A DNA stretch of 22,523 nt from Promethearchaeota archaeon (GTDB taxonomy: Archaea; Asgardarchaeota; Lokiarchaeia; Sigyniarchaeales; SOKP01). The stretch covers positions 1 to 22,523 of the forward strand of contig JAEOTS010000052.1 of assembly GCA_016839745.1 (NCBI GenBank), in the 5' to 3' direction. Made by a program: the position numbers and the translations under genes. Every line of letters starts with the position of its first letter. Position 1 is the first letter of the stretch. Below are positions 1-15,689 of this stretch, piece by piece. The notes under the pieces were generated by a model. The model searched no databases, was not told where the DNA came from, and worked only from the letters and a program-made list of their open reading frames with translations.

Positions 1-631
1 GAAATAATGGTAAAATAAGCATAAACCTAAAGTATTCTTTGGCATTTATAAAATCCCTTATCATTTCAGCATTTCTTCTAATGTTAAAATGAGTTTGTAA
101 TACACCTTTTGGAAAACCGGTAGTCCCCGATGTATAGAGTATAGCAGCATAGTCTTCTCTTTCATCAATAGTGACTTCTGGAGGGGCTTTGGATGAAGCT
201 TTTTCCATTAATTCCTCATAATTTAAAGTCCCTTCAATAGATTCTCCAATTACAATTATATGCTTAAGTTCGGGAAGATCCACCTTTATCTGATTAACAA
301 GTTCCATGAACTGAGGAATTGTGACAATCGCCTTGGCTTCTGAATGCCCCACTACAAATTTTACTTCTCTAGGTTTAAATAGTGCATTCACAGGGCCAGT
401 GGTTGCTCCTATTTTAGGAATTCCTAAATATAAATATACGTATTCAGGCATATTGGGCAAATAAACACTTACTTTATCTCCTTTTCTAATACCTAGGTCA
501 TATAAAAAATTTGCAACTTTGTTTGTCAATTCTTCCAATTGAGTATATGATACCGTGATATCTTTCCAATATAAAAACACCTTATCCTTATACTTTTCAG
601 CCTGACTTACAACTAATTCTCTAAGATTCAT
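1..631 (-). CDS. Long-chain fatty-acid/acyl-CoA ligase (AMP-binding, ANL superfamily), 5' part; runs off the window's left edge
   Basis: Not in the ORF track. Manual translation from ATG at 631 gives MNLRELVVSQAEKYKDKVFLYW...GIRKGDKVSVYLPNMPEY...AILYTSGTTGFPKGVLQTH...LILPLF, open to base 2. It contains the AMP-binding P-loop YTSGTTGxPKG. Confidence 0.93.
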   Translation of the reverse strand, partial: MNLRELVVSQAEKYKDKVFLYWKDITVSYTQLEELTNKVANFLYDLGIRKGDKVSVYLPNMPEYVYLYLGIPKIGATTGPVNALFKPREVKFVVGHSEAKAIVTIPQFMELVNQIKVDLPELKHIIVIGESIEGTLNYEELMEKASSKAPPEVTIDEREDYAAILYTSGTTGFPKGVLQTHFNIRRNAEMIRDFINAKEYFRFMLILPLF

Positions 632-698
632 ATTTATTTTCTCTTTTGTTTTTAATTTTGTTAATATGAATTTAAACAAACAACAATATATTTTCTAC

Positions 699-710
699 TA
701 TATAAATTTT
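699..710 (-). promoter_or_regulatory. Candidate archaeal BRE/TATA box for the CoA ligase gene
   Basis: Minus strand reads AAAATTTATATA about 70 nt upstream of the ATG at 631. The AT-rich background makes this uncertain. Confidence 0.35.
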
Positions 711-780
711 ACATTATTTCTCAAAAGGTTTTAAAGATTTAATAAAGAGAAAAAGAAGATTTAGAAAAAAATGAATTAGT

Positions 781-1656
781 CTATCTTCGATATTGGACCA
801 TAAAAGCAACTAACTCAGAATTTTGTTTTAAAACCTTAAATTGATCGTTCTTTATTTTATCTTCCGCTAACTTTACAAGTTCTTTGTGATCTAATTCATT
901 TTCACCAAATTCATCTTGGAGAACTGGCAAAAATTCACAAATTTGATTTAACTCTACAACCCTTCCTCTATACTTTTTCTTTGCTAATTCACTTGCGAGA
1001 AACACATAAGCTGGTGAAATAAACTCAGGTGGGATAGTAATAGGCATTTGCTGACCCCACTTTCTCAAATCCTCAGCAAATTTAGTTTCAACTCCCGCAG
1101 GTGTTAGGACGTTAACAATTATATTGTATGGCTTTAATTCTAAATTCAGACATTTTCCCATTGCTGAAATGGCAGCCTTAGACGCAGAATATGCCACCTT
1201 TTTAGGGGGAAAATAAATATTTCCTTGTACTGAAGCAGTCATAACTATATTTCCGCTTTTTTGTTCAATCATTTTAGGAACAACTTCTTTTACCATAGCG
1301 TAATAGCTCATGATATTAAGATTAAACATCTTTTGAGCCATTTCTATTGGATAATCTATTATAGAAGCAACTTGAGTCATGCCCGCATTGTTGATTAAAA
1401 TATCAATAGTATTAAACGTCTTAAAGAATACCTTAGCACAATTACTAACACCTTCTAAAGTTGATAAATCTGCAGGAATTGATAACCCTTTTACGCCAAA
1501 TAGTTCGATATCTTCAACAGTTTTATTTAATTCAGATTCAGTTCGAGCTGCAATTGCTACATTGGCACCATTTCTTGCTAGATCTAACGCAACAGCTCTT
1601 CCAATACCACGTCCACCCCCAGTTATTAAAGCGTTTTTTCCTTCCAATAATTTCAT
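781..1656 (-). CDS. Classical short-chain dehydrogenase/reductase (FabG-like), probably NADP(H)-preferring, with C-terminal extension
   Basis: TGGGRGIG, NNAG, catalytic S...YSASK. Basic residues in GRGIG and AART suggest NADP(H). SD-like AGGTGA at 1663-1668. Confidence 0.92.
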   Translation of the reverse strand: MKLLEGKNALITGGGRGIGRAVALDLARNGANVAIAARTESELNKTVEDIELFGVKGLSIPADLSTLEGVSNCAKVFFKTFNTIDILINNAGMTQVASIIDYPIEMAQKMFNLNIMSYYAMVKEVVPKMIEQKSGNIVMTASVQGNIYFPPKKVAYSASKAAISAMGKCLNLELKPYNIIVNVLTPAGVETKFAEDLRKWGQQMPITIPPEFISPAYVFLASELAKKKYRGRVVELNQICEFLPVLQDEFGENELDHKELVKLAEDKIKNDQFKVLKQNSELVAFMVQYRR

Positions 1657-1672
1657 AATTTTTCACCTAATT

Positions 1673-1717
1673 TTAGATAACGATACCGCGACCTTCACCA
1701 GTTACTAATGCATTCTT
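1673..1717 (-). pseudogene. 15-codon relic of an SDR N-terminus (KNALVTGEGRGIVI*)
   Basis: Minus strand reads AAG AAT GCA TTA GTA ACT GGT GAA GGT CGC GGT ATC GTT ATC TAA. It matches the neighbour's KNALITGGGRGIG at protein level with mostly different synonymous codons, and has no canonical in-frame start. Confidence 0.7.
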
Positions 1718-1740
1718 ATTTAAGTAAATAACTTAAATAA
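1716..1740. promoter_or_regulatory. Perfect 10-bp inverted repeat (TTATTTAAGT-N5-ACTTAAATAA), candidate operator in the SDR/BKACE divergent region
   Basis: Read directly from the sequence; function inferred from position. Confidence 0.45.
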
Positions 1741-1802
1741 TAAGCAAAAAAAAGATAAATTAAAATCATACTCTACTCTTTTTAAAAATTAAAAATAAAA
1801 TC

Positions 1803-1824
1803 TTTATTTGAACTTTCAAATAAA
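1803..1824. promoter_or_regulatory. Perfect 10-bp inverted repeat (TTTATTTGAA-CT-TTCAAATAAA) 12 nt upstream of the BKACE start, candidate operator
   Basis: Read directly from the sequence; function inferred from position. Confidence 0.45.
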
Positions 1825-1836
1825 ATGTGAACAGAA

Positions 1837-2727
1837 ATGTATAAATCAAATCCAGAAAGTAAGTTAGTTATTACAGCAGCATTAGCTGGTTCATTTCCAT
1901 CCAAGAAAAATAATCCTAATGTTCCATATACCCCAGAGGAATTTGGAGATGAAGCAAAAAGATGTTATGATGCTGGTGCTGCAATTGCCCATGTTCATGC
2001 TCGAGATCCAGAAACAGGCTATCCAACACATGAGTTAGATTTAATAAAGGCAATATTAGAGAATATTAAATCAAAAGCTCCCGACTTAATAATCAACTTA
2101 ACTACATCAATTGGTGCAGATGAACAACGAATAGCCCCTGTTCAAACATACAAACCACCTTTAGCTTCCCTAAATACAGCGTCTATGAATTATGCAGTTG
2201 GCAATTTTAAAACTGGTAAAGTTCTATGGGGAGCAGAAAATATATTTGCAAATACTTTTGAAACAATTTTAGAATTTGCAAAAGAGATGAAAGAAGTAGG
2301 GACCAAACCAGAGATGGAAATTTATGACTTAGGCGGTTTGTATAACATGCTTTTCTTAAACAGACAAGAAGGTACTTTTACGCAACCTCTTCATCTTCAA
2401 TTTGTATGGGGCGTGCTCGGAGGAATTCCATTCACTCCAAAGAACCTCGTATTATTACTCGACTTAATACCTCCAGATGCTAGTTGGAGCGTATGTGGTG
2501 TTGCTAAGCAACAATTTCAAGCAGGATTATGTGCTGCGGCGTTGGGAGGTCATATTCGCGTTGGTTTAGAGGATAATACACGCGTTGTAACAGGTGAACT
2601 AGCTAAAGGAAGTTGGGAGCAAGTTGCATGGGCTAAAAGAGTAGCTGAGGATGCAGGACGAGAGGTTGCACAAGGCGAAGAGGCAAGAAAAATTTTTCAT
2701 CTGAAAAAAGAACATGTCATGCTTTAA
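1837..2727 (+). CDS. Beta-keto acid cleavage enzyme family protein (BKACE/DUF849, Kce-like)
   Basis: PNVPYTPEE, Zn-binding HVHARD, KPEMEIYD, QFVWGVLGG and GGHIRVGLEDN motifs of the 3-keto-5-aminohexanoate cleavage enzyme family. Confidence 0.93.
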   Translation: MYKSNPESKLVITAALAGSFPSKKNNPNVPYTPEEFGDEAKRCYDAGAAIAHVHARDPETGYPTHELDLIKAILENIKSKAPDLIINLTTSIGADEQRIAPVQTYKPPLASLNTASMNYAVGNFKTGKVLWGAENIFANTFETILEFAKEMKEVGTKPEMEIYDLGGLYNMLFLNRQEGTFTQPLHLQFVWGVLGGIPFTPKNLVLLLDLIPPDASWSVCGVAKQQFQAGLCAAALGGHIRVGLEDNTRVVTGELAKGSWEQVAWAKRVAEDAGREVAQGEEARKIFHLKKEHVML

Positions 2728-2770
2728 AAAAGTCAATTTAAGCTAACCATCAATTAATTTAATTATATCC

Positions 2771-2815
2771 TTATTTTTATTTTTAGAAAATAGATAACAA
2801 AAAAAAAAATAAAAA
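2771..2815. terminator. Bidirectional T-tract terminator region between convergent BKACE and DUF35 genes
   Basis: TTATTTTTATTTTT on the + strand (2771-2784) and an A11 run at 2799-2809 (T11 on the minus strand). Confidence 0.5.
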
Positions 2816-2829
2816 TTAAATTTAAAATT

Positions 2830-3303
2830 CTATTCCCAATAAAGAATGTCTTTAAGGGTTCCTTCTCTGCTACCTTTTGATTTAAAGATTGCTTTTACTT
2901 TGGTACCGAGAAAATCCTTGCTGAAATCATTTGTATTAATGATACCTAAAAGTGCACCGTCAGTATTATCAATATCAATAAAAGCAACAACTTTAGGATT
3001 TTCCAATTTTTTACCGTGAGCATTTAATGTAGCGATTGTATAAAGTTTGATTGTACCAGATGAAGGAACTTCAATCCAATCACTTTCTATTATCTCTTCA
3101 AAACAATCTTCGCAGTACATTCTTGGAGGAAATAACACTTTATTACACTTAGAGCATTTGGTAGCTAAAAAAGTATCATTTTCCATAATATGTTTGAAGA
3201 ATTTATCACCAGCAATTCCACTCGGATAGAAGTAATCTGCTTGCATATCACCTCTCCAATGCATTGGAGTGGTAGGATCGGTTTGCTTTTCTAAGTATCC
3301 CAT
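2830..3303 (-). CDS. DUF35 Zn-ribbon/OB-fold protein (thiolase/aldolase partner)
   Basis: CSKC...PPRMYCEDC Zn ribbon followed by an OB fold. TAATG overlap with the upstream DUF35 gene. Confidence 0.9.
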   Translation of the reverse strand: MGYLEKQTDPTTPMHWRGDMQADYFYPSGIAGDKFFKHIMENDTFLATKCSKCNKVLFPPRMYCEDCFEEIIESDWIEVPSSGTIKLYTIATLNAHGKKLENPKVVAFIDIDNTDGALLGIINTNDFSKDFLGTKVKAIFKSKGSREGTLKDILYWE

Positions 3304-3836
3304 TAATCTCCACCTCCCTTTAAAGGTTTAAAGTATTTAATATCAGTAATAGACCCTTCTCTTTCATTTTCAGGTTTCCATACTGCTTTAACTTTCATAC
3401 CTATTTTAATTTCGTCTTTTGTCATTTCTCCGAAATAGTGCATAAAACCATGCTGTGGAGATGCGCCATCAATTGAAACTACCCCTACTAGTATTGGATC
3501 TTCAATTCTTCGAGCATCTGGGTCCAAATATGAAATTGAGAATGTTTCAATCACTCCAGTATCCTTTAATTCAACCCATTCATCTGTTGGACCGTAGCAA
3601 TATTCACAGAACATTCTAGGAGGTACGATGACTCTTTTACATCTCTTGCAATGTATACCTAAGATTTTACCTGCTTTTAATCCTTGAACAAATTTGCTCA
3701 TTGCATGCCCTAAACTCCAACTATACTGCACTTCAGGTTCCCACCAAGTGTAAGTAATTTTCTTATCGCGAATATCACTTTCTCTTATGTGAGTTCCGGG
3801 AGCATAAGGCGGCCAACTTTTCTTCTCTTTTGTCAC
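3303..3836 (-). CDS. DUF35 Zn-ribbon/OB-fold protein (thiolase/aldolase partner)
   Basis: CKRC...PPRMFCEYC, GVIETFS, IGMKVKAVWK, GSITDIKYF. GTG start preceded by AGGAGG. Confidence 0.9.
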   Translation of the reverse strand: MTKEKKSWPPYAPGTHIRESDIRDKKITYTWWEPEVQYSWSLGHAMSKFVQGLKAGKILGIHCKRCKRVIVPPRMFCEYCYGPTDEWVELKDTGVIETFSISYLDPDARRIEDPILVGVVSIDGASPQHGFMHYFGEMTKDEIKIGMKVKAVWKPENEREGSITDIKYFKPLKGGGD

Positions 3837-3840
3837 TTTT

Positions 3841-5004
3841 TTATCCCCTCCTTAAAACCATTACTGTTGCCATTTGCATAATATCACCCCACGCTTGTCC
3901 CACACCGACTCTTGGGTCTCCAGGGATTTGTCTCTTCCCTGCCTTTCCAGCGAGTTGCCAATATAATTCGCATACTTTTTGACCCATTGTCGCGGCGATA
4001 GGATTACCTACTCCTAAAAGCCCTCCCGAAGGACAGATAGGCATATCTCCATCTCTTTGGGTGACTCCCTCTCTTGTAAGAATTGGAGCTTCACCTTTTT
4101 TACACAATAACAATCCTTCCATATGGTGTAATTCCTTATAATCAAATGGATCATAAGGTTCTGCAAAATCAATTTCTTTTGGTGGATTGACTATTCCTGC
4201 CTTTTTATATGCCATTTTAGCTGCTTGAGCAACATATCTCGGAAAATAAAGATCTCTATTTGTCCACATTGTACTGTCAATACTCCATCCTGTTCCGGCA
4301 ACATAAATCGGATCGTCTGTAAATTTATGAACTACATCTTTACTGCAGAAGATCAATGCTGCAGCACCATCACTGGGTGGGCTGATATCTAACCTCTGCA
4401 CTGGCCAAGCCATCATTTCAGAGTTTAAAACATCATCGACAGTGATATTTGGGTCTGCCAATTGAGCACAAGGATGTCCTACTGCGTTTCTTTTATTCTT
4501 AACAGCTACCCGGGCGATATCTTCCTTTTTTATGTTATGGACAGTCATGTATCTATTCATTTCCATAGCAAAAAGCCACACAAGATTAGGAGTAAGTGGT
4601 CTATCAAGCACAGGATCCCATATATGTCTAAACGCTGTTTGAGGATGTGGATAACAATTGCCCATTTTTTCTTCAGCTACAACTAAACATACATCGGCAA
4701 CTCCACTTGCTACATGCCACCAACCTGCAATAGGAGCAAAAACACCAGTTCCACCTCCATTAAAAACTCGAACATATGGTTTACCAGTTGCGGCCGAACC
4801 GTCGATTAAATTTTCTCCTTTCATATGGATTCCATCAAAAGCATCAGGTGCACTCCCCATAACTACCATATCTATATCATCTTTTTGAATGCCAGCCTCT
4901 TCCATTGCCATCTTAGTCGCCAAAAAGGATAATTCCTTCCCGGTTTCTTTTAAGTGACGACGGAAAAGCGTCATACCGGCACCAATAACTGCTACTTCTT
5001 TCAT
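3841..5004 (-). CDS. Thiolase-fold (SCP2-thiolase type) protein lacking canonical catalytic Cys/His; Ltp3-like putative aldolase subunit
   Basis: Start reassigned to ATG at 5004 (MKEVAVIGAG, SD AGGAGG upstream). Motifs GSAPDAFDG, EEKM, SDGAAA, AEPYDPF, PSGGLLGVGNPI. The nucleophile region reads NGGGTG and GHP is replaced by GNP. Confidence 0.88.
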   Translation of the reverse strand: MKEVAVIGAGMTLFRRHLKETGKELSFLATKMAMEEAGIQKDDIDMVVMGSAPDAFDGIHMKGENLIDGSAATGKPYVRVFNGGGTGVFAPIAGWWHVASGVADVCLVVAEEKMGNCYPHPQTAFRHIWDPVLDRPLTPNLVWLFAMEMNRYMTVHNIKKEDIARVAVKNKRNAVGHPCAQLADPNITVDDVLNSEMMAWPVQRLDISPPSDGAAALIFCSKDVVHKFTDDPIYVAGTGWSIDSTMWTNRDLYFPRYVAQAAKMAYKKAGIVNPPKEIDFAEPYDPFDYKELHHMEGLLLCKKGEAPILTREGVTQRDGDMPICPSGGLLGVGNPIAATMGQKVCELYWQLAGKAGKRQIPGDPRVGVGQAWGDIMQMATVMVLRRG

Positions 5005-5009
5005 CTTTT

Positions 5010-6260
5010 TTATCCCCTCCTGAATATTGCTACAGCTCCACTTCCTGACGGAATTCCGCGCCAAGCTTGAGCAAGTCCTACTTCTGCATCTTTTACTTGT
5101 CTTTTAGCAGCGTGTCCTCGTAATTGTTGAATAATTTCTAACGCCTTTTGCATTCCTGTTGCTTCAAGACAGTTACCAACTCCTAATGAACCTCCAGATG
5201 TATTGGTAGGAAGTGATCCTCCCACTTCTAATGCTCCTTCCTCTAATAACATAGCAGCCTCACCCTCTCGAGCAAGTCCTACTGCTTCAAGGTGTTGAAG
5301 CTCTTTGTAAGAGAATCTATCATCCAATTCAACAACATCAATTTCCTTTCTCGGTTCTTTAATATCTGCCATCTTATATGCCATTTTTGCTGCCTTTGTA
5401 GCGTAATCAGCATTCATTCCTCTTGTACTTAGCCAAGGTGTCTCAGAACTCCATCCAAAACCATCGAGATATATTGGTTCAATTCCCAATTTCTTTGCTG
5501 TTTTATCATCAGCAAGTACAAAGCATACAGCACCATCTACATTGGGACTAATATCTAGTTTTTTAAGTGGTTTAAAAAGATATTCTGATTCCATCACGTC
5601 TTCAGTTGTTATTTTAGATTCATAATCTGCATACGGATTAAAGAACGCATTCTTTTTGTTTTTTACAACTACCGCAGCACACTGTTCTTCAGTTGTACCA
5701 GTTTTCCTTAAATAATGCTGCATTTCTAATCCCGCTAAGAAATAAGGGTGTATTCGTTCTTTCTCATTTGAAGAACCTATAAATGGTTTAGGTGCTTCTG
5801 GAGTGTATTCTGGACTTCCTCCATAATTCGGTCTCTTTGCAGGTCCTGAGATTGGTCTGTCAAATAAAGGATCAAATGCATGAAGCATAATATCTCCGTA
5901 AGTTAATAAATCAGAGATTTTACTATGCACTTCTACCGACACAATATCGAAATATTCAGTCATAATTTGCATGTAAGCGTTTCCAAGGCCATATAATCCA
6001 TCACCACATACGGTACAACAAGGTCGTAATAATGCTCCAACTTGATCTGGTACAAATTCATCAAATATACTAAATCCTTCCCAGTAATCCTCAGCACATG
6101 TTATAAAACTACCAACATCTTTTCTCGGATCGATCCCTGCATCCACGTAAGCCTTATTACATGCCTCATACATAATATCCTTCCATTGCATATCTGGTGT
6201 CATTGAATTGAAATCTGTATGTCCAACTCCAATAACACATACTTTTCGACTCATATTCAT
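5010..6260 (-). CDS. Second thiolase-fold protein (degenerate, putative structural partner subunit of an Ltp3/Ltp4-like pair)
   Basis: VCVIGVG, EDYWEG, VDGAVCFVLA, VELDDRFSYKELQHLEA, TSGGSLGVGNC. The start could be 6260 or 6254. Confidence 0.88.
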   Translation of the reverse strand: MNMSRKVCVIGVGHTDFNSMTPDMQWKDIMYEACNKAYVDAGIDPRKDVGSFITCAEDYWEGFSIFDEFVPDQVGALLRPCCTVCGDGLYGLGNAYMQIMTEYFDIVSVEVHSKISDLLTYGDIMLHAFDPLFDRPISGPAKRPNYGGSPEYTPEAPKPFIGSSNEKERIHPYFLAGLEMQHYLRKTGTTEEQCAAVVVKNKKNAFFNPYADYESKITTEDVMESEYLFKPLKKLDISPNVDGAVCFVLADDKTAKKLGIEPIYLDGFGWSSETPWLSTRGMNADYATKAAKMAYKMADIKEPRKEIDVVELDDRFSYKELQHLEAVGLAREGEAAMLLEEGALEVGGSLPTNTSGGSLGVGNCLEATGMQKALEIIQQLRGHAAKRQVKDAEVGLAQAWRGIPSGSGAVAIFRRG

Positions 6261-6437
6261 CCAATTTTTTATTTTTATTTAAAATCGATTCATTTTTTCA
6301 AATAGATTCAATACTTTATAATTACGTCCAATTACGATTAAAATATTACTAAAATTATATGAAAAGTGAGAATGGGAAATTTATCCCTATACGAATGAAA
6401 ACAAAATTTTAAAACTTCTTGAAAGTAGTGATATATT

Positions 6438-7772
6438 ATGGATACAAGAATTAGAGAGTTTGAAAAAATCAAAATTCAAAAATATATTCCAGAATTAGAT
6501 TTACTAAACAATCCCGTACTTAATTCTCAAGAAAAAGAATTCTTAGCAGAGTTGTATGGATTTATGGAGAAAGAACTCGATCCAGAATTCAGAAAATTAG
6601 AAGATTTAAATTACCTTGTAGAAGAACCTACTCAGGATAAAAAGAGAGATATTGTAATTGGTATAATGAAGAAATTATCCGATAAAGGTTATTATTCTAC
6701 AATACTTAACACAGAAGATTATGATGTAGGAAGAATTACTAGAAACGCATTAATAGCCTATGCAATATGTGGTGGTCGATGGAGTGAGTACAGTGAACGG
6801 TATATTGCTGGAAATTATAGTGTAGAGATGGGTAGACTTGCTGGAGGTACTCTTTATTGTAACCCTGTAAATTATGCGTCCAATGAGGCACAGAAAGAAA
6901 TATTTTTGAATCCCGTAGCAGGAGAGGGTAAAATTGGTGCTTCTGCCATGACTGAATTTAACGCAGGTTCTGACATATTTAGAATGGAATTAGCTCTACA
7001 AGAAAGGGATGATATGATCGTTGCGAAAGGCAAAAAATTATTCATTACAAACGGCATGATTGCTGAATATATTATCTTATATGGAAGGTTAAATAACGGA
7101 CAATTAGCTGCAGTTGTTGTAGATACAAAAAATCAACAGCTAAAAAACTTTCGAAGTGCTCGGGTGAGAACCTATGGTATGACTGATGCTTTCGTTAGTC
7201 GATTAATATTTGATAGGGTAGAGCTCCCAAAAGAGAGTCTACTTCAAGGACATGGATTAGATATTGCTTTTCATCAATTAACAGAGGAAAGATTAGTTAT
7301 AAGTGCGGAAGCTTTGGGAGATACTATGAAAAAATTACTCTACTCTCATGCATACGCTCTCCAACGCAGACAATTTGAGCAAAGATTACATCAATATCAA
7401 GTAATTAGATTTCCAATTTCTCGAAAAATCCGCGAACTGAATTTGTTAATTTCTGCTATGATTCAATATGTAAGACAGTTAGACAACCATCCTGAATTAG
7501 CGGGCTCTAAATTGATGGCTGCTAATACAATGGGTTTAAAAATTAGTGCCACAGAACTTGGGTTTGAGAGCGCCATTCATTGCTTTAGAACTATGGGTGG
7601 ACGGGGCTTTACAAGGCAATACGCCAATGAAATTGGCTTATTTGACCCATTTTGCATGATACATGGAGGGGGTAGTAATTATGTTTTGGAGGATAGCGAA
7701 TCTCGAAGATTCTTTAAATATAAACCTCCACGTAGAGAATTTGAGGATGCTATACCTAAAGTTGATTATTAG
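6438..7772 (+). CDS. Divergent acyl-CoA dehydrogenase (IVD/LCAD-type catalytic Glu position)
   Basis: AMTEFNAGSD, GKKLFITNG, LTEERL, RRQF..L..YQ, MGGRGF. The C-terminal IYEGT motif is replaced by IHGGGS. Confidence 0.88.
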   Translation: MDTRIREFEKIKIQKYIPELDLLNNPVLNSQEKEFLAELYGFMEKELDPEFRKLEDLNYLVEEPTQDKKRDIVIGIMKKLSDKGYYSTILNTEDYDVGRITRNALIAYAICGGRWSEYSERYIAGNYSVEMGRLAGGTLYCNPVNYASNEAQKEIFLNPVAGEGKIGASAMTEFNAGSDIFRMELALQERDDMIVAKGKKLFITNGMIAEYIILYGRLNNGQLAAVVVDTKNQQLKNFRSARVRTYGMTDAFVSRLIFDRVELPKESLLQGHGLDIAFHQLTEERLVISAEALGDTMKKLLYSHAYALQRRQFEQRLHQYQVIRFPISRKIRELNLLISAMIQYVRQLDNHPELAGSKLMAANTMGLKISATELGFESAIHCFRTMGGRGFTRQYANEIGLFDPFCMIHGGGSNYVLEDSESRRFFKYKPPRREFEDAIPKVDY

Positions 7773-7913: not shown

Positions 7914-8885
7914 ATGGACTACTATTACAATTTCGAAACATTTGATATTACTCACCTAGCAGAGCAATATAAGGATAAAAAAATCGAAGATGTATTTCGT
8001 AATCATGAAATTGTGCGTAATCCTATGGGACAATTCATGGAAATTATATGGAAAGAAGAAGCTTTTCAATGCGATTTGAACTTATCGTTCTCAAAGAAGA
8101 AAATACTTCGAAATTTAAAGACAGTTTATTATATTGGAGAAAAATTAGAACGACATCTTAATAGGAAAGGCGTTAAGTCATTATATGATTTAAAAATTAA
8201 TCTGAAGTACAACCTTTCAGCACATCGAGTCTTGGATCTTATAGAAAATAAAGAATATAGAAGTTTGTGTAGAAATAAAAATATTTACGACTTGGATGTT
8301 GCATTTTGTTTTGATTTAGAAGAACTACTGTTTCTTGATATAGAGACATTAGGATTATATGATAGTCCAATAGTCATGATAGGTTTAGGATATTTTAAAA
8401 ACAATACTTTTGAAATCCATATTTTATTTGCGAGAGATTTAGAAGAAGAAATTGCGATGTGTGAGCATCTTAAAACGGAGATATTACCAAAATATAAATG
8501 TTTTATTACTTATAATGGTAAAAGTTTTGATATCCCTTACATTGCTAATCGACTTATGTATTATTTTGACGAAAATCCAATGATATCTGATGAAGAAGAG
8601 CCTTATGAGAGGTTCAACAGTAAAATACATCATATTGATCTATACCATAATTGCCGTAGGAAATATAAAGGAAGTTTCGAAAACTACACGCTTACAGATA
8701 TGGAGCTTAAATTACTGAATATGAAAAGAGAAAATGAATTACCTAGTGGTTTAGTAGGGTTATGCTATAAAAAGTATTTAGAATCTCCACTAAGATATGT
8801 TGGACTAGTAAAAGAGATAATTGACCACAATTATTGGGATATTTATTCTATGCCTTTGATTTTTCAAAAATTATTAGAAGATTAA
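7914..8885 (+). CDS. YprB-like RNase H-fold (RNase_H_2/DEDD-type) exonuclease with N-terminal HhH-like segment
   Basis: FLDIETLGL, TYNGKSFDIPY, HIDLY and HNYWDI acidic motifs. TVYYIGEKLERHL resembles a helix-hairpin-helix. Confidence 0.85.
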   Translation: MDYYYNFETFDITHLAEQYKDKKIEDVFRNHEIVRNPMGQFMEIIWKEEAFQCDLNLSFSKKKILRNLKTVYYIGEKLERHLNRKGVKSLYDLKINLKYNLSAHRVLDLIENKEYRSLCRNKNIYDLDVAFCFDLEELLFLDIETLGLYDSPIVMIGLGYFKNNTFEIHILFARDLEEEIAMCEHLKTEILPKYKCFITYNGKSFDIPYIANRLMYYFDENPMISDEEEPYERFNSKIHHIDLYHNCRRKYKGSFENYTLTDMELKLLNMKRENELPSGLVGLCYKKYLESPLRYVGLVKEIIDHNYWDIYSMPLIFQKLLED

Positions 8886-11500: not shown

Positions 11501-12613
11501 TTAAAAGAAGCTAAACCTTTGAGAGGATTTTCTATTAATTTCGCCTTTAATATCGTTACTTAAATCGTATTGGCAATTAGGACATTTTTTTAAATCCATT
11601 ATATCAATTTTTGAGAACCTGTAGCCACTCCTACCCAAAATTAAGTGATTACAGTTTGGACAGTAAGTATTTCCTCCTTTTTCGTGACTTATATTCCCAA
11701 CGTACACATAATTTATACCTTCTTTTTTGGCGATTTTATACGCTTTGTCTAACGTTTCAAACGGAGTTCTTTTCATAGAAGGTTGTTTAAAGTCAGGATG
11801 ATAGGCGGAGAAGTGAGTAGGAGTGTCATCTCCAAGATTTTCAACAATCCAATTTGAGAGCAACTTGATTTCAGCATCGCTATCGTTTAAGTCAGGAATA
11901 ATTAGATTTGTGATTTCTACATGAATCCCGTTGCTTTTAAATCTTTTTGCTGTGTCCAATACGGGTTGTACTGATTTAGCACCACAGATAGTTTTATAAA
12001 ACTCATCTGACATAGATTTTAAATCTATATTAGCAGCATCTATTCCGACTTCTATTAACTCCTTTGTAGCTTCTGGTGTAGAATACCCGTTCGTTACTAA
12101 TATAGTCTTTATATCTTCTTTCTTAAGCAATTTAGTGGTATCTAAGATCCATTCATGCCAAATAAGTGGTTCGTTGTATGTATATGCTAGTGTTTTAGCA
12201 CCGCTTTTAACGACTTTTTTCACCAATTGTTCGGGCGTCATTTCAACTAACGACATTCCACGGTCCTCGTATCCCTTAAGGTCGTAAAAACCATCTTTCC
12301 CGCTATCCGTTGGGTTTGCTTGGCTAATAGACCAGTTTTGGCAATTTTGACACTTAAAAGAACACCCAATAGATGCAATCGAATAAGCCGTTGCACCTGG
12401 CCAATAGTTGTAAAGAGGTTTCTTTTCAATTGGATCTAAACTGCCCGATGATATCATAGAACCGTAAATTAAGGAGTACAGTTCTCCTTCAAAATTTTTT
12501 CTTGTTCTACATATTCCTACCTTATCAGGTAGGATAGTACATTCATTAGCACATACATGGCATTTAACCTTATTTTCATCAAGTTTCTCGAATAATCTTG
12601 CCTTTACTTTCAT
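11501..12613 (-). CDS. amrS: AmmeMemoRadiSam-system radical SAM enzyme (PFL-activating-enzyme-like)
   Basis: N-terminal CHVCANEC..G.CRTRKN, DPIEKKPLY, radical SAM CSFKCQNCQNW, AYTYNEP, ANIDLK, EITNLIIP, HFSAYHP, YVYVGN and a C-terminal CPNC..CPNC. Confidence 0.92.
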   Translation of the reverse strand: MKVKARLFEKLDENKVKCHVCANECTILPDKVGICRTRKNFEGELYSLIYGSMISSGSLDPIEKKPLYNYWPGATAYSIASIGCSFKCQNCQNWSISQANPTDSGKDGFYDLKGYEDRGMSLVEMTPEQLVKKVVKSGAKTLAYTYNEPLIWHEWILDTTKLLKKEDIKTILVTNGYSTPEATKELIEVGIDAANIDLKSMSDEFYKTICGAKSVQPVLDTAKRFKSNGIHVEITNLIIPDLNDSDAEIKLLSNWIVENLGDDTPTHFSAYHPDFKQPSMKRTPFETLDKAYKIAKKEGINYVYVGNISHEKGGNTYCPNCNHLILGRSGYRFSKIDIMDLKKCPNCQYDLSNDIKGEINRKSSQRFSFF

Positions 12614-12669
12614 ACAAAATACCTAAATTCAGATATTGTTTACTTAATCTATCTCTACATATATAATAG

Positions 12670-12692
12670 ATAAGAAATTTTATATTTCTTAT
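12670..12692. promoter_or_regulatory. 9-bp inverted repeat (ATAAGAAAT-TTTAT-ATTTCTTAT) centred on a TATA-like element in the amrS / C_GCAxxG divergent region
   Basis: Read directly from the sequence; function inferred. Confidence 0.35.
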
Positions 12693-12735
12693 AGGTTTAA
12701 AATGTATTATTCATAATAAAATGTAGTCATTTATA

Positions 12736-13176
12736 ATGTCGAGAATAGAAGAAGCTCTCTCAAGCTTTAAAGAGGATTTCAATTGCGCTCAATCAATCTT
12801 CGGTACTTATGCACCTCACTATGGATTAGATCGAGATATAGCTTTGAAAATATCTACCGGATTTGGAGGCGGAATGGGACGTAGTGGTAGAACTTGCGGA
12901 GCTGTGACTGGAGCGTATATGGTTATTGGACTTAAAAATGGAATGGGATTAAACAAGGATCAAGAAGCGAAAGATAAGACCTATCAGGTTTTAAACGAAT
13001 TTTCTAACCATTTTCAAGAAAGAAATAGTTCGATGATTTGTAAAGAAATACTAGGTTGTGATATTAACACATCTGAAGGTATGGAGTATTTCAGTCAAAA
13101 TGAATTATTTGAAAAAAAATGTTTTCATTGTGTGAAGAATGCAGCTGAGATTTTAGAAGAAATTTTATACAAATAG
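12736..13176 (+). CDS. C_GCAxxG_C_C family putative redox/metal-binding protein
   Basis: FNCAQS, GFGGGMG..TCGAVTGA, MICKEILG and KKCFHCV pattern. Confidence 0.9.
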   Translation: MSRIEEALSSFKEDFNCAQSIFGTYAPHYGLDRDIALKISTGFGGGMGRSGRTCGAVTGAYMVIGLKNGMGLNKDQEAKDKTYQVLNEFSNHFQERNSSMICKEILGCDINTSEGMEYFSQNELFEKKCFHCVKNAAEILEEILYK

Positions 13177-13213
13177 TAATAATATTAAAATTAATTAGTT
13201 TTCCTTCTTATTT

Positions 13214-14134
13214 ATGGCTGAAGACAAAGAAGAATACACCCGTGAAGAATTAGAGTTCCTTCTAAAAGAAAAATTAGTTTATTTGAAGGAATTGGAACAA
13301 ATTGGTAAGGATTCCAACTATTTCCAAGAATTAAGTGATATTGCCTTAATTCAGCTACAATTAGAATTATTTGATGAATCCGAAAAGAATTATTTGTTAT
13401 GCTTAAAACATTTTCAAGTACTAAAAGATAGATTAGGACAAGCAGCTGTGTATGGAGTACTAGGTACACTTTCTTATAAAAAGGGGGATTACCAGAAATC
13501 AATTGAATTCTATGAAAACGCTTTCGATATATATGATGAATTAAAGCAGGTTCAAGAGCAAATCACATGTTTAAAAGGAATTGGTAATAGTTTCATCAAA
13601 TTGAACAAATTTGATAAAGCCTGCGATGTTTTACTTGAATGTAGCGCTTTATGCTCCGATAACCATGATATATACAGTTTACTTGACTGTTTAGGTAATT
13701 TAATTCAAATCTATGAAATACAAGAAAATTGGGATATTGTTTTAGAACTCTATAAAAAATCTCTTGAAGCTTTTAAAGAATTAGAAGATTTCAAGGGTAT
13801 AATTGTTTCTTATTTTAATTTAGGTATTCTAAAAAAAAATGAAACTGATTATTATCAATCACTTCTCTATTTTAAAAAAGGAACAAATAAAGCTATTGAT
13901 TCTAATTATACGGAATTAATTCTAAAGGGATTAAGTTATGTTGGGGAGATTCTAGTTTATCAGGGTGAAATGCATGAAGCAAAAGAAACGTACATTAAAG
14001 CCTTGAGCATTGCTGAAGAAATAAAAGCAAAAAACTCAATTCATCAGATAAGAATCCTTTTAAATTCTTTAGGTTTAAGTGAGGAAGAAATAAACAAAGA
14101 GTTAACCACATATATGAACCGTAGAAAAAACTAG
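13214..14134 (+). CDS. Tetratricopeptide repeat protein
   Basis: Repeated helical units of about 40 aa (LGTLSYKKGDYQKSIEFYENA, LGNLIQIYE, FNLGIL, VGEILVYQGEMHEAKETYIKAL). Confidence 0.88.
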   Translation: MAEDKEEYTREELEFLLKEKLVYLKELEQIGKDSNYFQELSDIALIQLQLELFDESEKNYLLCLKHFQVLKDRLGQAAVYGVLGTLSYKKGDYQKSIEFYENAFDIYDELKQVQEQITCLKGIGNSFIKLNKFDKACDVLLECSALCSDNHDIYSLLDCLGNLIQIYEIQENWDIVLELYKKSLEAFKELEDFKGIIVSYFNLGILKKNETDYYQSLLYFKKGTNKAIDSNYTELILKGLSYVGEILVYQGEMHEAKETYIKALSIAEEIKAKNSIHQIRILLNSLGLSEEEINKELTTYMNRRKN

Positions 14135-14243
14135 CAATAATGAAATAGTATAACAATCAAGTTTTAAATGAGTTTTTAAAAAATTATATATGAACGAATT
14201 TTCATTTTTAATTAAACGAGTATAAATAAAACATCGCTTTGTA

Positions 14244-15689
14244 ATGATTAATTGTCCATTCTGTAAGGAGCCAATCGAAAGTTATTGGACCTATTGCCGT
14301 AATTGTAATAAACCTTTAATTACAAATATTGACGAGGAACTTAATAAAAAGCTATTTTCTCCTTATGATGGTGGCCCATACCGTTCAAACGATTTCGAAG
14401 AAGAAGAAGATTACTACGATATCAATGTTATTGATGATGATTCTATCGAACTTGAGCTTACTCAACTGGAAGATCAACTTACCGAGAGCGAAAAATTAGG
14501 AAAAAATATGGGTAATCTTCTTTTGAGGAAAGCAAGTTTGTTTTATAAAAAGAGAGATTTTCCAAATGCTTTAAAAAATTTAGAAGTTGCTTTGGAAAAC
14601 TTTCTTGATGAAAAAGATTTCTTAAATGTGATTATATGTCACAACGAATTAGGTTTGATTCACGAGGAAACTGGATTCTTTGATCAAGCTATCTACCATT
14701 TTGATAGAGCTCTTAGCGCCTTAGAAGAAATTAACGATAATATAAAGAAAGTCCAAGTTTTGAATAACTTGGGTAATGTGTATTATTTAATTAATGATTT
14801 AGAAAACTCTTACAAATATTATCAGGATGCATTAAACCTAGCTGAAAAGGAAAATTTGGAAGTAGACGCTATAAAAACTTCTAGTAATTTAGTCGAAGTT
14901 TTGCTTTCTTTAAAAGACTTTGATCGTATTAAGAAAATATTGAAAAGAAACTTGGAATTTTTTACGAAAATTAACGATATTTATGGAGTTATCCAAACAC
15001 GCATCAAGTATGGCAAATTGTATTATTATCTTGGAGAAGACTATTACGATCAGTCTTATAATTGCTTAACAAGTGTAGTAGAGCTAATTGATACAATTAA
15101 AGACCAAATTTCTCTTTTTACAAAGAAAAAGTTGGAATGGGAGTGTTTTCTTTACTTAGGGCATTTATATTCTCTATGGGATAATGATTTAGAGGCAGAA
15201 GATTACTTTTTGAAAAGTTTAGAGGCAGTGAGAACATTTGAAGTTCAAGAAAACATTAAAGAAGGAATAGTCTTAGAAGCGATCGCTGAATTTTATTCAT
15301 TAAAAGGAGAGGATGGTAAGGCTATCGATTACTATAGTTATTCAAAAGATATTTATCAAAAATTTGGGGACAAGTTAAAGATAGGTGAAATGAAATATCA
15401 TGTAGCAACTATTTTCCAAAATTATATCCAAGATGAGCCAAAAGCAATAGTATATTATGAAGAAGCTTTAGAAATCTTTGAAAATTTAAACAACCCAAAG
15501 ATGGCTGCAGAAATTCTAAATAAATTAGGAGATATTTATGTTTCTAAGCAAATGTTTGAGCAAGCTTTAGGTAATTTTGAAAGAGCAAAAGATTTTTATG
15601 CTGAAATAGAAGACGAACACAATAAGAACATCGTTACAGAAAAAATTAACTCTTTGAAAGACAATGATTTTGATGTATCTAGTCTTTAG
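14244..15689 (+). CDS. TPR protein with N-terminal zinc ribbon and acidic linker
   Basis: CPFC..CRNC, then DFEEEEDYYD..DDD, then TPRs (NELGLIHEETGFFDQAIYHFDRAL, NNLGNVYY, NKLGDIY). Confidence 0.9.
   Translation: MINCPFCKEPIESYWTYCRNCNKPLITNIDEELNKKLFSPYDGGPYRSNDFEEEEDYYDINVIDDDSIELELTQLEDQLTESEKLGKNMGNLLLRKASLFYKKRDFPNALKNLEVALENFLDEKDFLNVIICHNELGLIHEETGFFDQAIYHFDRALSALEEINDNIKKVQVLNNLGNVYYLINDLENSYKYYQDALNLAEKENLEVDAIKTSSNLVEVLLSLKDFDRIKKILKRNLEFFTKINDIYGVIQTRIKYGKLYYYLGEDYYDQSYNCLTSVVELIDTIKDQISLFTKKKLEWECFLYLGHLYSLWDNDLEAEDYFLKSLEAVRTFEVQENIKEGIVLEAIAEFYSLKGEDGKAIDYYSYSKDIYQKFGDKLKIGEMKYHVATIFQNYIQDEPKAIVYYEEALEIFENLNNPKMAAEILNKLGDIYVSKQMFEQALGNFERAKDFYAEIEDEHNKNIVTEKINSLKDNDFDVSSL

Follow-up and report, generated by a model that had tools for sequence, protein, structure and literature searches.

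We analysed a 22,523-nucleotide (nt) stretch of a Promethearchaeota archaeon genome (GenBank assembly GCA_016839745.1, contig JAEOTS010000052.1, positions 1–22,523 of the forward strand; hereafter the window) and found near its left-hand end a four-gene cassette, Ta–Tb–Da–Db, encoding two thiolase-fold proteins that lack the catalytic residues of thiolases and two DUF35 proteins. The system is a new archaeal variant of the cysteine-less (Cys-less) thiolase/DUF35 type known from actinobacterial Ltp3/Ltp4. We propose tentatively that its products act as a heteromeric, non-thiolytic C–C lyase with retro-aldol (or aldol) chemistry, a serious possibility of which we are somewhat less than half convinced. 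The four genes are:

5010–6260, minus strand: Ta, a-type thiolase-fold subunit, 416 amino acids (aa); Thiolase_C_1, PRK06066-like
3841–5004 (longest open reading frame 3841–5064), minus strand: Tb, b-type thiolase-fold subunit, 387 aa; Thiolase_C_1, PRK06065 family
3303–3836, minus strand: Da, DUF35 protein with a zinc ribbon and an OB fold, 177 aa; zf-ChsH2 and OB_ChsH2_C, CKRC...CEYC
2830–3303, minus strand: Db, second DUF35 protein, 157 aa; zf-ChsH2, weak OB_ChsH2_C, CSKC...CEDC

The start of Tb was placed at M21 of the longest reading frame (nt 5004), matching public gene calls, and Tb and Ta therefore do not overlap; the intergenic distances within the cassette are gaps of 5 nt and 4 nt and one 1-nt overlap.

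Residues were mapped by HMMER alignment to solved archaeal and sterol carrier protein 2 (SCP2) thiolases and by alignment with the genome's own canonical thiolases, and conservation was assessed in 74 Tb and 69 Ta orthologues taken from 80 loci. At the position of the thiolase nucleophile (ACASG), Tb reads GGGT (in NGGGTG) and Ta has a three-residue deletion that leaves CGDG. The HDCF motif is replaced by YDPF in Tb (in EPYDPF) and by DDRF in Ta (in ELDDRF), and GHP by GNP (in GVGNP) and GNC (in GVGNC), respectively; the HDCF and GHP regions align without gaps with 4BI9, 6HSJ, 6ESQ and 7YVY. Thus neither subunit has the nucleophilic Cys, the HDCF motif or the GHP His that define SCP2-type thiolases (EC 2.3.1.9/2.3.1.16). 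An earlier note, made from the sequence by eye, had described the pair as lacking the canonical Cys and His, and the motif alignments and the 69–74 orthologues agree: the Cys nucleophile, the HDCF His and Cys and the GHP His are lost from both subunits throughout, in support of a non-thiolytic lyase. Ta does have a cysteine, C85 (in TVCGDG), near the nucleophile position, but it is unconserved (Cys in 32 of the 69 orthologues, Ser in 18, Thr in 11, Gly in 6 and Asp in 1). That these are ordinary β-oxidation or biosynthetic thiolases, as the public name of their orthologues (acetyl-CoA C-acetyltransferase) implies and as their best solved relatives, which are thiolases, might suggest, is very improbable, given that all the residues defining catalysis are missing from both subunits in all orthologues and that canonical thiolases with Cys, HDCF and GHP are encoded elsewhere in the same genome (contigs C136 and C101). 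A complex of these proteins would not be capable of thiolysis or Claisen condensation through an acyl-cysteine intermediate.

What replaces the thiolase motifs is itself strongly conserved. In Tb, the invariant positions comprise GGGT83–86, EEKM, E282-x-Y284-D-P-F, Y289-K-E, H294, PSGGLxGxGN334PIAA and QAWGDxMQ, and the E-x-Y and N-P-I elements are unchanged even in relatives at 36% identity. In Ta, the invariant residues are T83, D87, E110, H112-S-K114, E311, D314, F316, K319, N353, E366, W400-R401 and P404, whereas N363 varies, as does C85. Because the motifs of Tb are invariant while C85 and N363 of Ta vary, Tb is probably the only catalytic subunit and Ta a probably degenerate partner that would shape the pocket.

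Pfam (Thiolase_N and Thiolase_C_1) places the pair in the thiolase superfamily by fold, and the AlphaFold2 (AF2) model of Tb has a pLDDT of 87. Among solved structures, this model scored Z 52.1 to the archaeal DUF35-bound thiolase 6ESQ (over 379 residues), 50.6 to BbsB, 46–47 to PhlC and MucABC, 44.1 to Ltp2, 43 to TbSLP and 42.7 to Sal. Judged from the model, Tb would therefore be structurally closest to thiolase-fold proteins bound by DUF35, which is consistent with the proposed lyase. In the nearest structures (Z 50–52), a thiolase-fold dimer carries a DUF35 zinc-ribbon/OB subunit, as we propose here, and in one of them two different thiolase-superfamily enzymes occur together; unlike Tb, these closest relatives keep Cys, HDCF and GHP and carry out true thiolysis or condensation. 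At the family level, Tb is a member of NF004721 (PRK06065; 652.7 bits against a cut-off of 455). Ta scores 473.9 bits against NF004722 (PRK06066), below the cut-off of 516 but still its top family by 200 bits; it falls short because an insertion of about 30 residues, rich in Pro and Gly (KRPNYGGSPEYTPEAPKPFIGSSNEKERIH, residues about 138–172, window 5745–5850) and unconserved across phyla, splits the match in two. NF004722 is also the sole family match of the N-terminal half of Ta (192.7 bits). Among 14 well-known control genomes, exactly one exceeds the cut-offs, and it does so for both families. Both are named 'thiolase domain-containing protein' and are sequence families with no function assigned, with Tb inside one and Ta nearest to its partner; a literature search found no paper on a heteromeric archaeal family of the Ta/Tb/Da/Db kind.

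The closest known parallel is the actinobacterial Ltp3–Ltp4 pair of C24-branched sterol side-chain catabolism. A Nocardia farcinica locus (NZ_LN868939.1) encodes, in this order, a ligase, an enoyl-CoA hydratase (ECH), a second ligase, an F420-type luciferase-like monooxygenase (LLM), a 340-aa tandem-DUF35 protein, an Ltp4-family protein (NF005924, 596 bits) and an Ltp3-type protein (NF006180, 750 bits). The Ltp3-type protein has no nucleophilic Cys and reads EIYVPF and SNPIG, and Ltp4 reads VEMDA, ELHAPF and ANPMF. The two systems thus share two adjacent Cys-less thiolase-fold genes with two DUF35 domains, a Tyr at the HDCF His in the b-type/Ltp3 subunit, an Asn in place of the GHP His, and nearby genes for a ligase, an ECH and an F420-type LLM; the Ltp3/Ltp4 likeness put forward in the earlier note is borne out by this common signature. 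They differ in gene order, with the fused DUF35–DUF35 protein coming first in Nocardia, followed by Ltp4 and then Ltp3, and in sequence, identity to the window cassette being only 33% for Tb and 27% for Ta. Tb and Ta lie below the family cut-offs (Tb, 243.9 bits against 514 for NF006180; Ta, 85.5 against 419 for NF005924). A second cassette of the same genome (Ta2–Tb2–Da2–Db2, below) is nearer: Tb2 scores 380.6 bits against NF006180 and Ta2 203.8 bits against NF005924, Tb2 (38.7% identity, 256 bits) and Ta2 (27.7%, 120 bits) are the best matches of the Nocardia Ltp3-type and Ltp4 proteins, and the longer relatives nearest to Da2 are fused Da2–Db2 proteins and actinobacterial tandem-DUF35 proteins. 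Sequence comparison therefore indicates that the analogy is one of real homology and common architecture, closest for the second cassette, with the window cassette as a sister family. The relation of Ta to Ltp4 depends on the method: BLAST and a common three-residue deletion pair Ta with Ta2/Ltp4, but a maximum-likelihood tree places Ta as sister to Tb (support 89/87), and an approximately unbiased (AU) test did not reject monophyly of the a-type proteins (p = 0.084). A Mycobacterium branderi replicon was also tried as a source of Ltp3/Ltp4 and was set aside, as it holds only another thiolase/DUF35 type in a steroid-like cluster.

Two solved retro-aldolases, Ltp2–ChsH2 and Sal–Shy (6OK1 and 9MYR), suggest how such a complex could work. 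Like Tb, they have an SCP2-thiolase fold that has lost the nucleophilic Cys, are partnered by DUF35 and carry a Tyr in a YDxF-type motif; they differ in being homodimers with one DUF35 per subunit, the DUF35 domain being carried on a hydratase, and in their 22% identity to Tb. Tyr294 of TcLtp2 (YDHF) and Tyr302 of CtSal (YDCY) are essential bases, and the Sal motif is derived from the thiolase motif (PMC12329534). Tyr284 of Tb stands at the position of the SCP2-thiolase HDCF His, which corresponds to that of the catalytic base in Ltp2 and Sal, an equivalence drawn from the alignment to HDCF thiolases together with PMC12329534 rather than from a direct alignment to 6OK1 or 9MYR. We propose that Ta, Tb, Da and Db assemble as one heteromeric thiolase-fold/DUF35 complex in which each DUF35 protein probably clamps one thiolase-fold subunit. 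In ketosynthases of the Cys/His/Asn type, the Asn stabilises a thioester enolate; likewise, Asn334, which replaces the GHP His of Tb, and the kept Gly373 loop may hold the enolate here. With Tyr284 as the candidate base, the complex would catalyse a reversible retro-aldol cleavage of a 3-hydroxyacyl-CoA to a carbonyl compound and acetyl- or propionyl-CoA, replacing the dehydrogenase and thiolase steps where the β-carbon is branched or cannot be oxidised.

To see how the cassette is distributed, relatives were searched for with a four-sequence b-type alignment as query; more than 594 loci were confirmed, and neighbourhoods were counted in the best 80, in which Tb is 68–94% identical. The archaeal sources of these 80 are Hodarchaeota, metagenome-assembled genomes (MAGs) labelled Thermoplasmatota, Archaeoglobi, Bathyarchaeia, Methanomassiliicoccales, Thorarchaeota and a Halodesulfurarchaeum, and the bacterial ones are Fraserbacteria, Bipolaricaulota and Thermotogota. 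Tb was present in 79 loci, Ta in 72, Da in 75 and Db, following Da, in 64, most losses falling at contig ends, and the order Ta–Tb–Da–Db is kept in nearly all of the 80 across many phyla. Bacterial proteins of about 730 aa often combine Tb, Da and Db in a single chain (more than 140 protein clusters), and these fusions support a physical association. A gene of the acyl-CoA dehydrogenase (ACAD) family lies within 10 kb of the cassette in 33 of the 80 loci, although the dehydrogenases are non-orthologous, and is accompanied by a ligase or CoA-transferase, and the survey showed no recurring 3-hydroxyacyl-CoA dehydrogenase family, a pattern that favours a lyase. Ligase (19 loci), ECH (12) and the β-keto acid cleavage enzyme BKACE (8, all Hodarchaeota-type) are further neighbours. 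In Archaeoglobi, the ACAD gene stands directly downstream of the cassette, and the Thermoplasmatota-labelled loci have a two-subunit CoA-transferase with a butyryl-CoA-dehydrogenase-like ACAD. Some bacterial copies stand alone among unrelated housekeeping genes. In MAGs labelled Thermoplasmatales, Thermoplasmata or Thermoplasmatota (L027, L034, L037, L038, L041, L042, L044 and L047), Tb is 84–93% identical to the window protein in a different neighbourhood, which reflects either recent inter-phylum transfer or wrong taxon labels.

Genes for B12-dependent acyl-CoA mutases stand beside Cys-less cassettes in three unrelated sets of loci, namely Bathyarchaeia (L058, L064 and L071–L074, where MeaB, a B12 subunit and an adenosyltransferase are also present), L138 and L142. 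Separately, a vicinal oxygen chelate (VOC)/glyoxalase domain is fused to the N terminus of Tb in two metagenomic protein clusters, P0309 (L138, 9001–11079, which also includes Da) and P0314 (L137, 9001–11136), and a gene for an acyl-CoA mutase or for another VOC protein lies close by; the genes are split in assemblies, so that the fusions are a possible read-through artefact. These neighbours raise the alternative that the complex is a KS-Q-like decarboxylase of a β-carboxy thioester such as malonyl- or methylmalonyl-CoA, with the enolate held by Asn334 and the Gly loop. The loss of the nucleophile with retention of enolate-stabilising elements would suit such an enzyme, as would the mutases, the VOC domain (the fold of methylmalonyl-CoA epimerase) and the structural neighbour TbSLP; a trypanosomal SCP2-thiolase-like protein reportedly has decarboxylase-type activity. 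We nevertheless think decarboxylation improbable: the invariant Tyr284 is the base in aldolases and has no obvious role in it, the mutase neighbours and VOC fusions fit equally an aldolase that releases propionyl-CoA, no mutase lies in the Hodarchaeota cluster, and homology to the genetically defined Ltp3/Ltp4 favours side-chain cleavage.

Several points weigh against the retro-aldolase that we prefer. No enzyme assay has been made on any member of the Ltp3/Ltp4 or PRK06065/66 clade, and the 'aldol-lyase' label of Ltp3/Ltp4 rests on knock-out phenotypes only (Wilbrink 2012, cited in PMC6273163 and PMC10398937). Tb also has no counterpart to the second catalytic residue of the two solved aldolases, having Pro286 at the position of Sal Cys304 and, by residue count only, Asn334 at that of Ltp2 Tyr344, and both structure and sequence bring it closer to true thiolases (Z 52, E 3e-44) than to Ltp2 and Sal (Z 43–44, E 5e-19). 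Nor is a hydratase regularly found next to the cassette, as the ECH count above shows, and the repeated mutase neighbours suit other chemistries too. Moreover, identity of about 70% across phyla and the stand-alone bacterial copies speak for a small, common substrate rather than bulky lipids. Because Tb lacks the second catalytic residue and is nearer to DUF35-bound true thiolases, retro-aldol cleavage is rated the most likely chemistry but not a demonstrated one. Another alternative is a different function for a remodelled or inert scaffold: CoA-independent acyl transfer of the PhlABC kind, a channelling platform that docks short-chain dehydrogenase/reductase (SDR), ECH or ACAD enzymes, as in the ketothiolase (KT)/DUF35 fatty-acid synthase of Sulfolobus, or new chemistry. 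Archaeal DUF35 proteins do mediate multi-enzyme assemblies (bioRxiv 10.1101/2024.07.05.601840), PhlC and MucABC are structurally close, and the neighbouring genes vary widely among phyla. PhlC and the Sulfolobus ketothiolase retain the catalytic Cys that Tb lacks, however, and the very strong conservation of pocket-like motifs in Tb favours catalysis, so that we hold such roles to be unlikely, though worth keeping in view.

The retro-aldolase reading also draws on what surrounds the cassette. The earlier note had reported eight contiguous acyl-CoA-related genes in 1–7772, and open-reading-frame listing and Pfam found all eight where it had placed them; the four outside the cassette are:

2–679, minus strand: acyl-CoA ligase, N-terminal part; AMP-binding, model positions 4–215
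781–1656, minus strand: FabG-like SDR, 291 aa; adh_short, 170 bits
1837–2727, plus strand: BKACE, 296 aa; PF05853, 301 bits, model positions 1–274; convergent with the cassette
6438–7772, plus strand: divergent ACAD, 444 aa; Acyl-CoA_dh_M/_1; divergently transcribed from the cassette

Together, the eight genes make up four transcription units rather than one operon (ACAD; Ta–Tb–Da–Db; BKACE; SDR–ligase and onward). The SDR reaches no NCBIfam family at its cut-off and occupies the same position in only one other surveyed locus (L036).

The best solved relatives of the ACAD are isovaleryl-CoA dehydrogenases (IVDs), although its N-terminal domain went undetected by Pfam and its NCBIfam scores are far under the cut-offs. 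Its LTEERLV segment aligns with LDYERVV of IVD (DYER of 4KTO and 4O5M), which places the catalytic Glu at the position used by IVD and long-chain acyl-CoA dehydrogenase (LCAD), and at the medium-chain (MCAD) position it reads IHGGGS against IYEGT of 4L1F, so that YEG has become HGG without a Glu; TEER and HGG are invariant in 15 orthologues, in line with the earlier assignment of the Glu to the IVD/LCAD position. The BKACE is a full-length TIM barrel with its zinc ligands, HxH and E/D, kept (HVHARD and GLEDN align with the ligand motifs of Kce). As first noticed by eye, it lacks the Kce-type Glu, TGAE of Kce being AGSF here (Glu to Phe), and the BKACEs of these clusters all have a hydrophobic residue at that position and none a Glu. 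The Glu of TGAE is said to bind the amine, reportedly after work by Bellinzoni et al. in 2011. The protein is not a Kce equivalog (NF052387, 247.9 bits against a cut-off of 382) and reaches the cut-off of none of the four named NCBIfam BKACE equivalogs. It shares the fold and metal ligands of Kce and other BKACEs (2Y7D; family survey of Bastard et al. 2014) and differs from them in the missing Glu of TGAE. The archaeal BKACE repertoire is large: six paralogues are encoded in this genome.

The acyl-CoA genes of the window proved to be the right-hand end of an acyl-CoA and lipid cluster of about 26 kb. Window positions 1–127 are identical to C81:16171–16297, a 127-mer unique in the assembly, and the ligase is one open 532-aa frame across the join (AMP-binding model positions 203–384 and AMP-binding_C on C81). 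The end of C59 matches the start of C81 likewise, giving a chain C59, C81, C14 by unique 127-nt overlaps. Three observations support the C81 join: the 127-mer is unique, the ligase frame stays open across it, and L134 has an identical gene order, with its ligase orthologue (1014 bits) flanked by the second cassette and BKACE; the contig of a near-identical relative stops inside Db and so gives no confirmation. Beyond the remainder of the ligase gene, C81 continues leftward with Ta2–Tb2–Da2–Db2 (11813–15084, minus strand), a tandem cassette that shares 38% and 34% identity with that of the window. Next come an ECH, whose top NCBIfam family is EchA19 (below cut-off), genes for an FNR-like reductase and a CrtI-family flavoprotein, and a second ECH. 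The join therefore puts a hydratase in the cluster. The earlier statement that no hydratase or carboxylase is visible holds, as regards the hydratase, for the window only, the two ECH genes lying beyond it; the inspection to the left that the note had advised thus supplied the hydratases, whereas an acyl-CoA carboxyltransferase was not found in the genome.

Further left, C81 carries an amino-acid ABC transporter, a β-eliminating lyase and a third Cys-less thiolase-like gene with its own DUF35, and C59 a thioesterase and an old yellow enzyme (OYE) flavoprotein. The transporter and the lyase were rejected as pathway parts, being absent from the clusters of relatives. The third thiolase-like gene (C81, 159–1915, plus strand, 421 aa) has GGATG for the Cys nucleophile, keeps HDAF and GHA, and has a DUF35 gene next to it; it is a different kind of Cys-less thiolase fold.

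On continuous contigs of relatives, the layout in the genus runs from an exonuclease through ACAD, a variable thiolase slot and BKACE (sometimes two, sometimes with an F420-type LLM) to Ta2–Tb2–Da2–Db2, ECH, (an iron-containing alcohol dehydrogenase (Fe-ADH) and SCP2), FNR, CrtI, ECH and ligase. The variable slot is filled either by Ta–Tb–Da–Db or by one 473-aa thiolase-like gene accompanied by a DUF35-like gene. The second cassette is present in almost every genome of the genus, the window cassette in 4 of the 25 first sampled. BKACE of the P0003 type (orthologues 510–550 bits) and ACAD of the P0004 type are kept in the cluster with or without the window cassette, and are therefore part of the larger cluster and untied to that cassette. 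The content of the cluster (second cassette, ECH, ligase, CrtI-like and FNR-like proteins, BKACE and ACAD, with LLM, SCP2 and Fe-ADH in the version of the relatives) fits the breakdown of branched or bulky lipid chains, and parallels that of the Nocardia ligase/ECH/LLM/tandem-DUF35/Ltp4/Ltp3 cluster, an analogy that is also consistent with a lyase.

The earlier note had gone further, suggesting that the complex splits an HMG-CoA-like tertiary 3-hydroxyacyl-CoA into a β-keto acid and acetyl-CoA, from which BKACE would form acetoacetate and an acyl-CoA without ATP; the substrate would be a 3-hydroxy-3-alkylglutaryl-CoA and the acyl-CoA product a shortened one. An intact active site in the BKACE, 103 nt from the end of the cassette, is compatible with this full pathway, as are its position next to the cassette in 8 of 9 Hodarchaeota-type loci with enough flank, despite shuffled surroundings, and the BKACEs of the P0003 type that flank the second cassette across the genus. 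An unrelated archaeal metagenome contig (49% GC) likewise has BKACE beside two second-type cassettes, a MaoC hydratase, an ACAD and a ligase, and the two-subunit CoA-transferase that takes the place of BKACE in the Thermoplasmatota-labelled loci could do the same ATP-free job. A tertiary HMG-CoA-like substrate, however, needs γ-carboxylation, and the search for a PF01039 carboxyltransferase came up empty in this genome and in 40 of 41 from the genus, of which many are 98% complete or better. In the remaining 72 orthologue loci there is no BKACE, nor is there one in the other same-order families sampled, and none was found in the Nocardia stretch searched. The BKACE gene lies on the opposite strand to the cassette and persists where the cassette is missing; five of the six paralogues (on C157, C151, C43, C139 and C4) are on contigs without a Thiolase_C_1 match. 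A word-based search for longer relatives of the second cassette's DUF35, of low sensitivity, returned tandem-DUF35 proteins and one MaoC fusion but no DUF35–BKACE fusion. With no carboxyltransferase, little adjacency, and BKACE and ACAD persisting without the cassette, cleavage of an HMG-CoA-like substrate that feeds BKACE is unsupported, and we consider the full pathway doubtful. Judged by the note's own refuting condition, that the adjacency is not conserved in relatives, BKACE and P0004-type ACAD stay next to the cassette within the lineage but not beyond it (8 of 80 loci each).

A broader version, also improbable in our view, would have Ltp3/Ltp4-type aldolases and BKACE together remove branches from isoprenoid- or sterol-like acyl chains independently of oxygen, biotin and ATP in Hodarchaeota-type Asgard archaea, and perhaps in many anaerobes. 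Here, the aldolase would cut at a tertiary or blocked β-carbon and BKACE, spending one acetyl-CoA, would bring the released acid back into the CoA pool.

Whatever the substrate, this Cys-less family includes thousands of public genes that are annotated as 'acetyl-CoA acetyltransferase' or 'thiolase domain-containing protein', names that claim an activity they cannot have. Its members in Archaeoglobi, Bathyarchaeia, Asgard archaea and several bacterial phyla are still about 70% identical to one another and keep a strict four-gene architecture, and the actinobacterial Ltp3/Ltp4, which are needed for removal of plant-sterol side chains, belong to the same Cys-less clade. The chemistry of one archaeal complex would thus define that of the whole clade. 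It would also correct reconstructions that count these genes as β-oxidation or mevalonate thiolases in anaerobic archaea, and would show whether the closest archaeal relatives of eukaryotes degrade branched lipids.

The source genome is a MAG of 3.5 Mb that is 89% complete, and near-identical public proteins, which come from MAGs labelled Hodarchaeota, Hermodarchaeota or 'Promethearchaeota', put it among the Asgard archaea. From position 7914 rightward, the window holds unrelated genes, including those for an RNase H-like exonuclease, a GlpD-like oxidase, a radical SAM protein and tetratricopeptide-repeat (TPR) proteins. The first of these (RNase H-like/PolB-exonuclease-like, 7914–8885, plus strand) adjoins the ACAD in every relative examined, also where the window cassette is absent, so that part of the adjacency conserved in the genus can be put down to inherited synteny.

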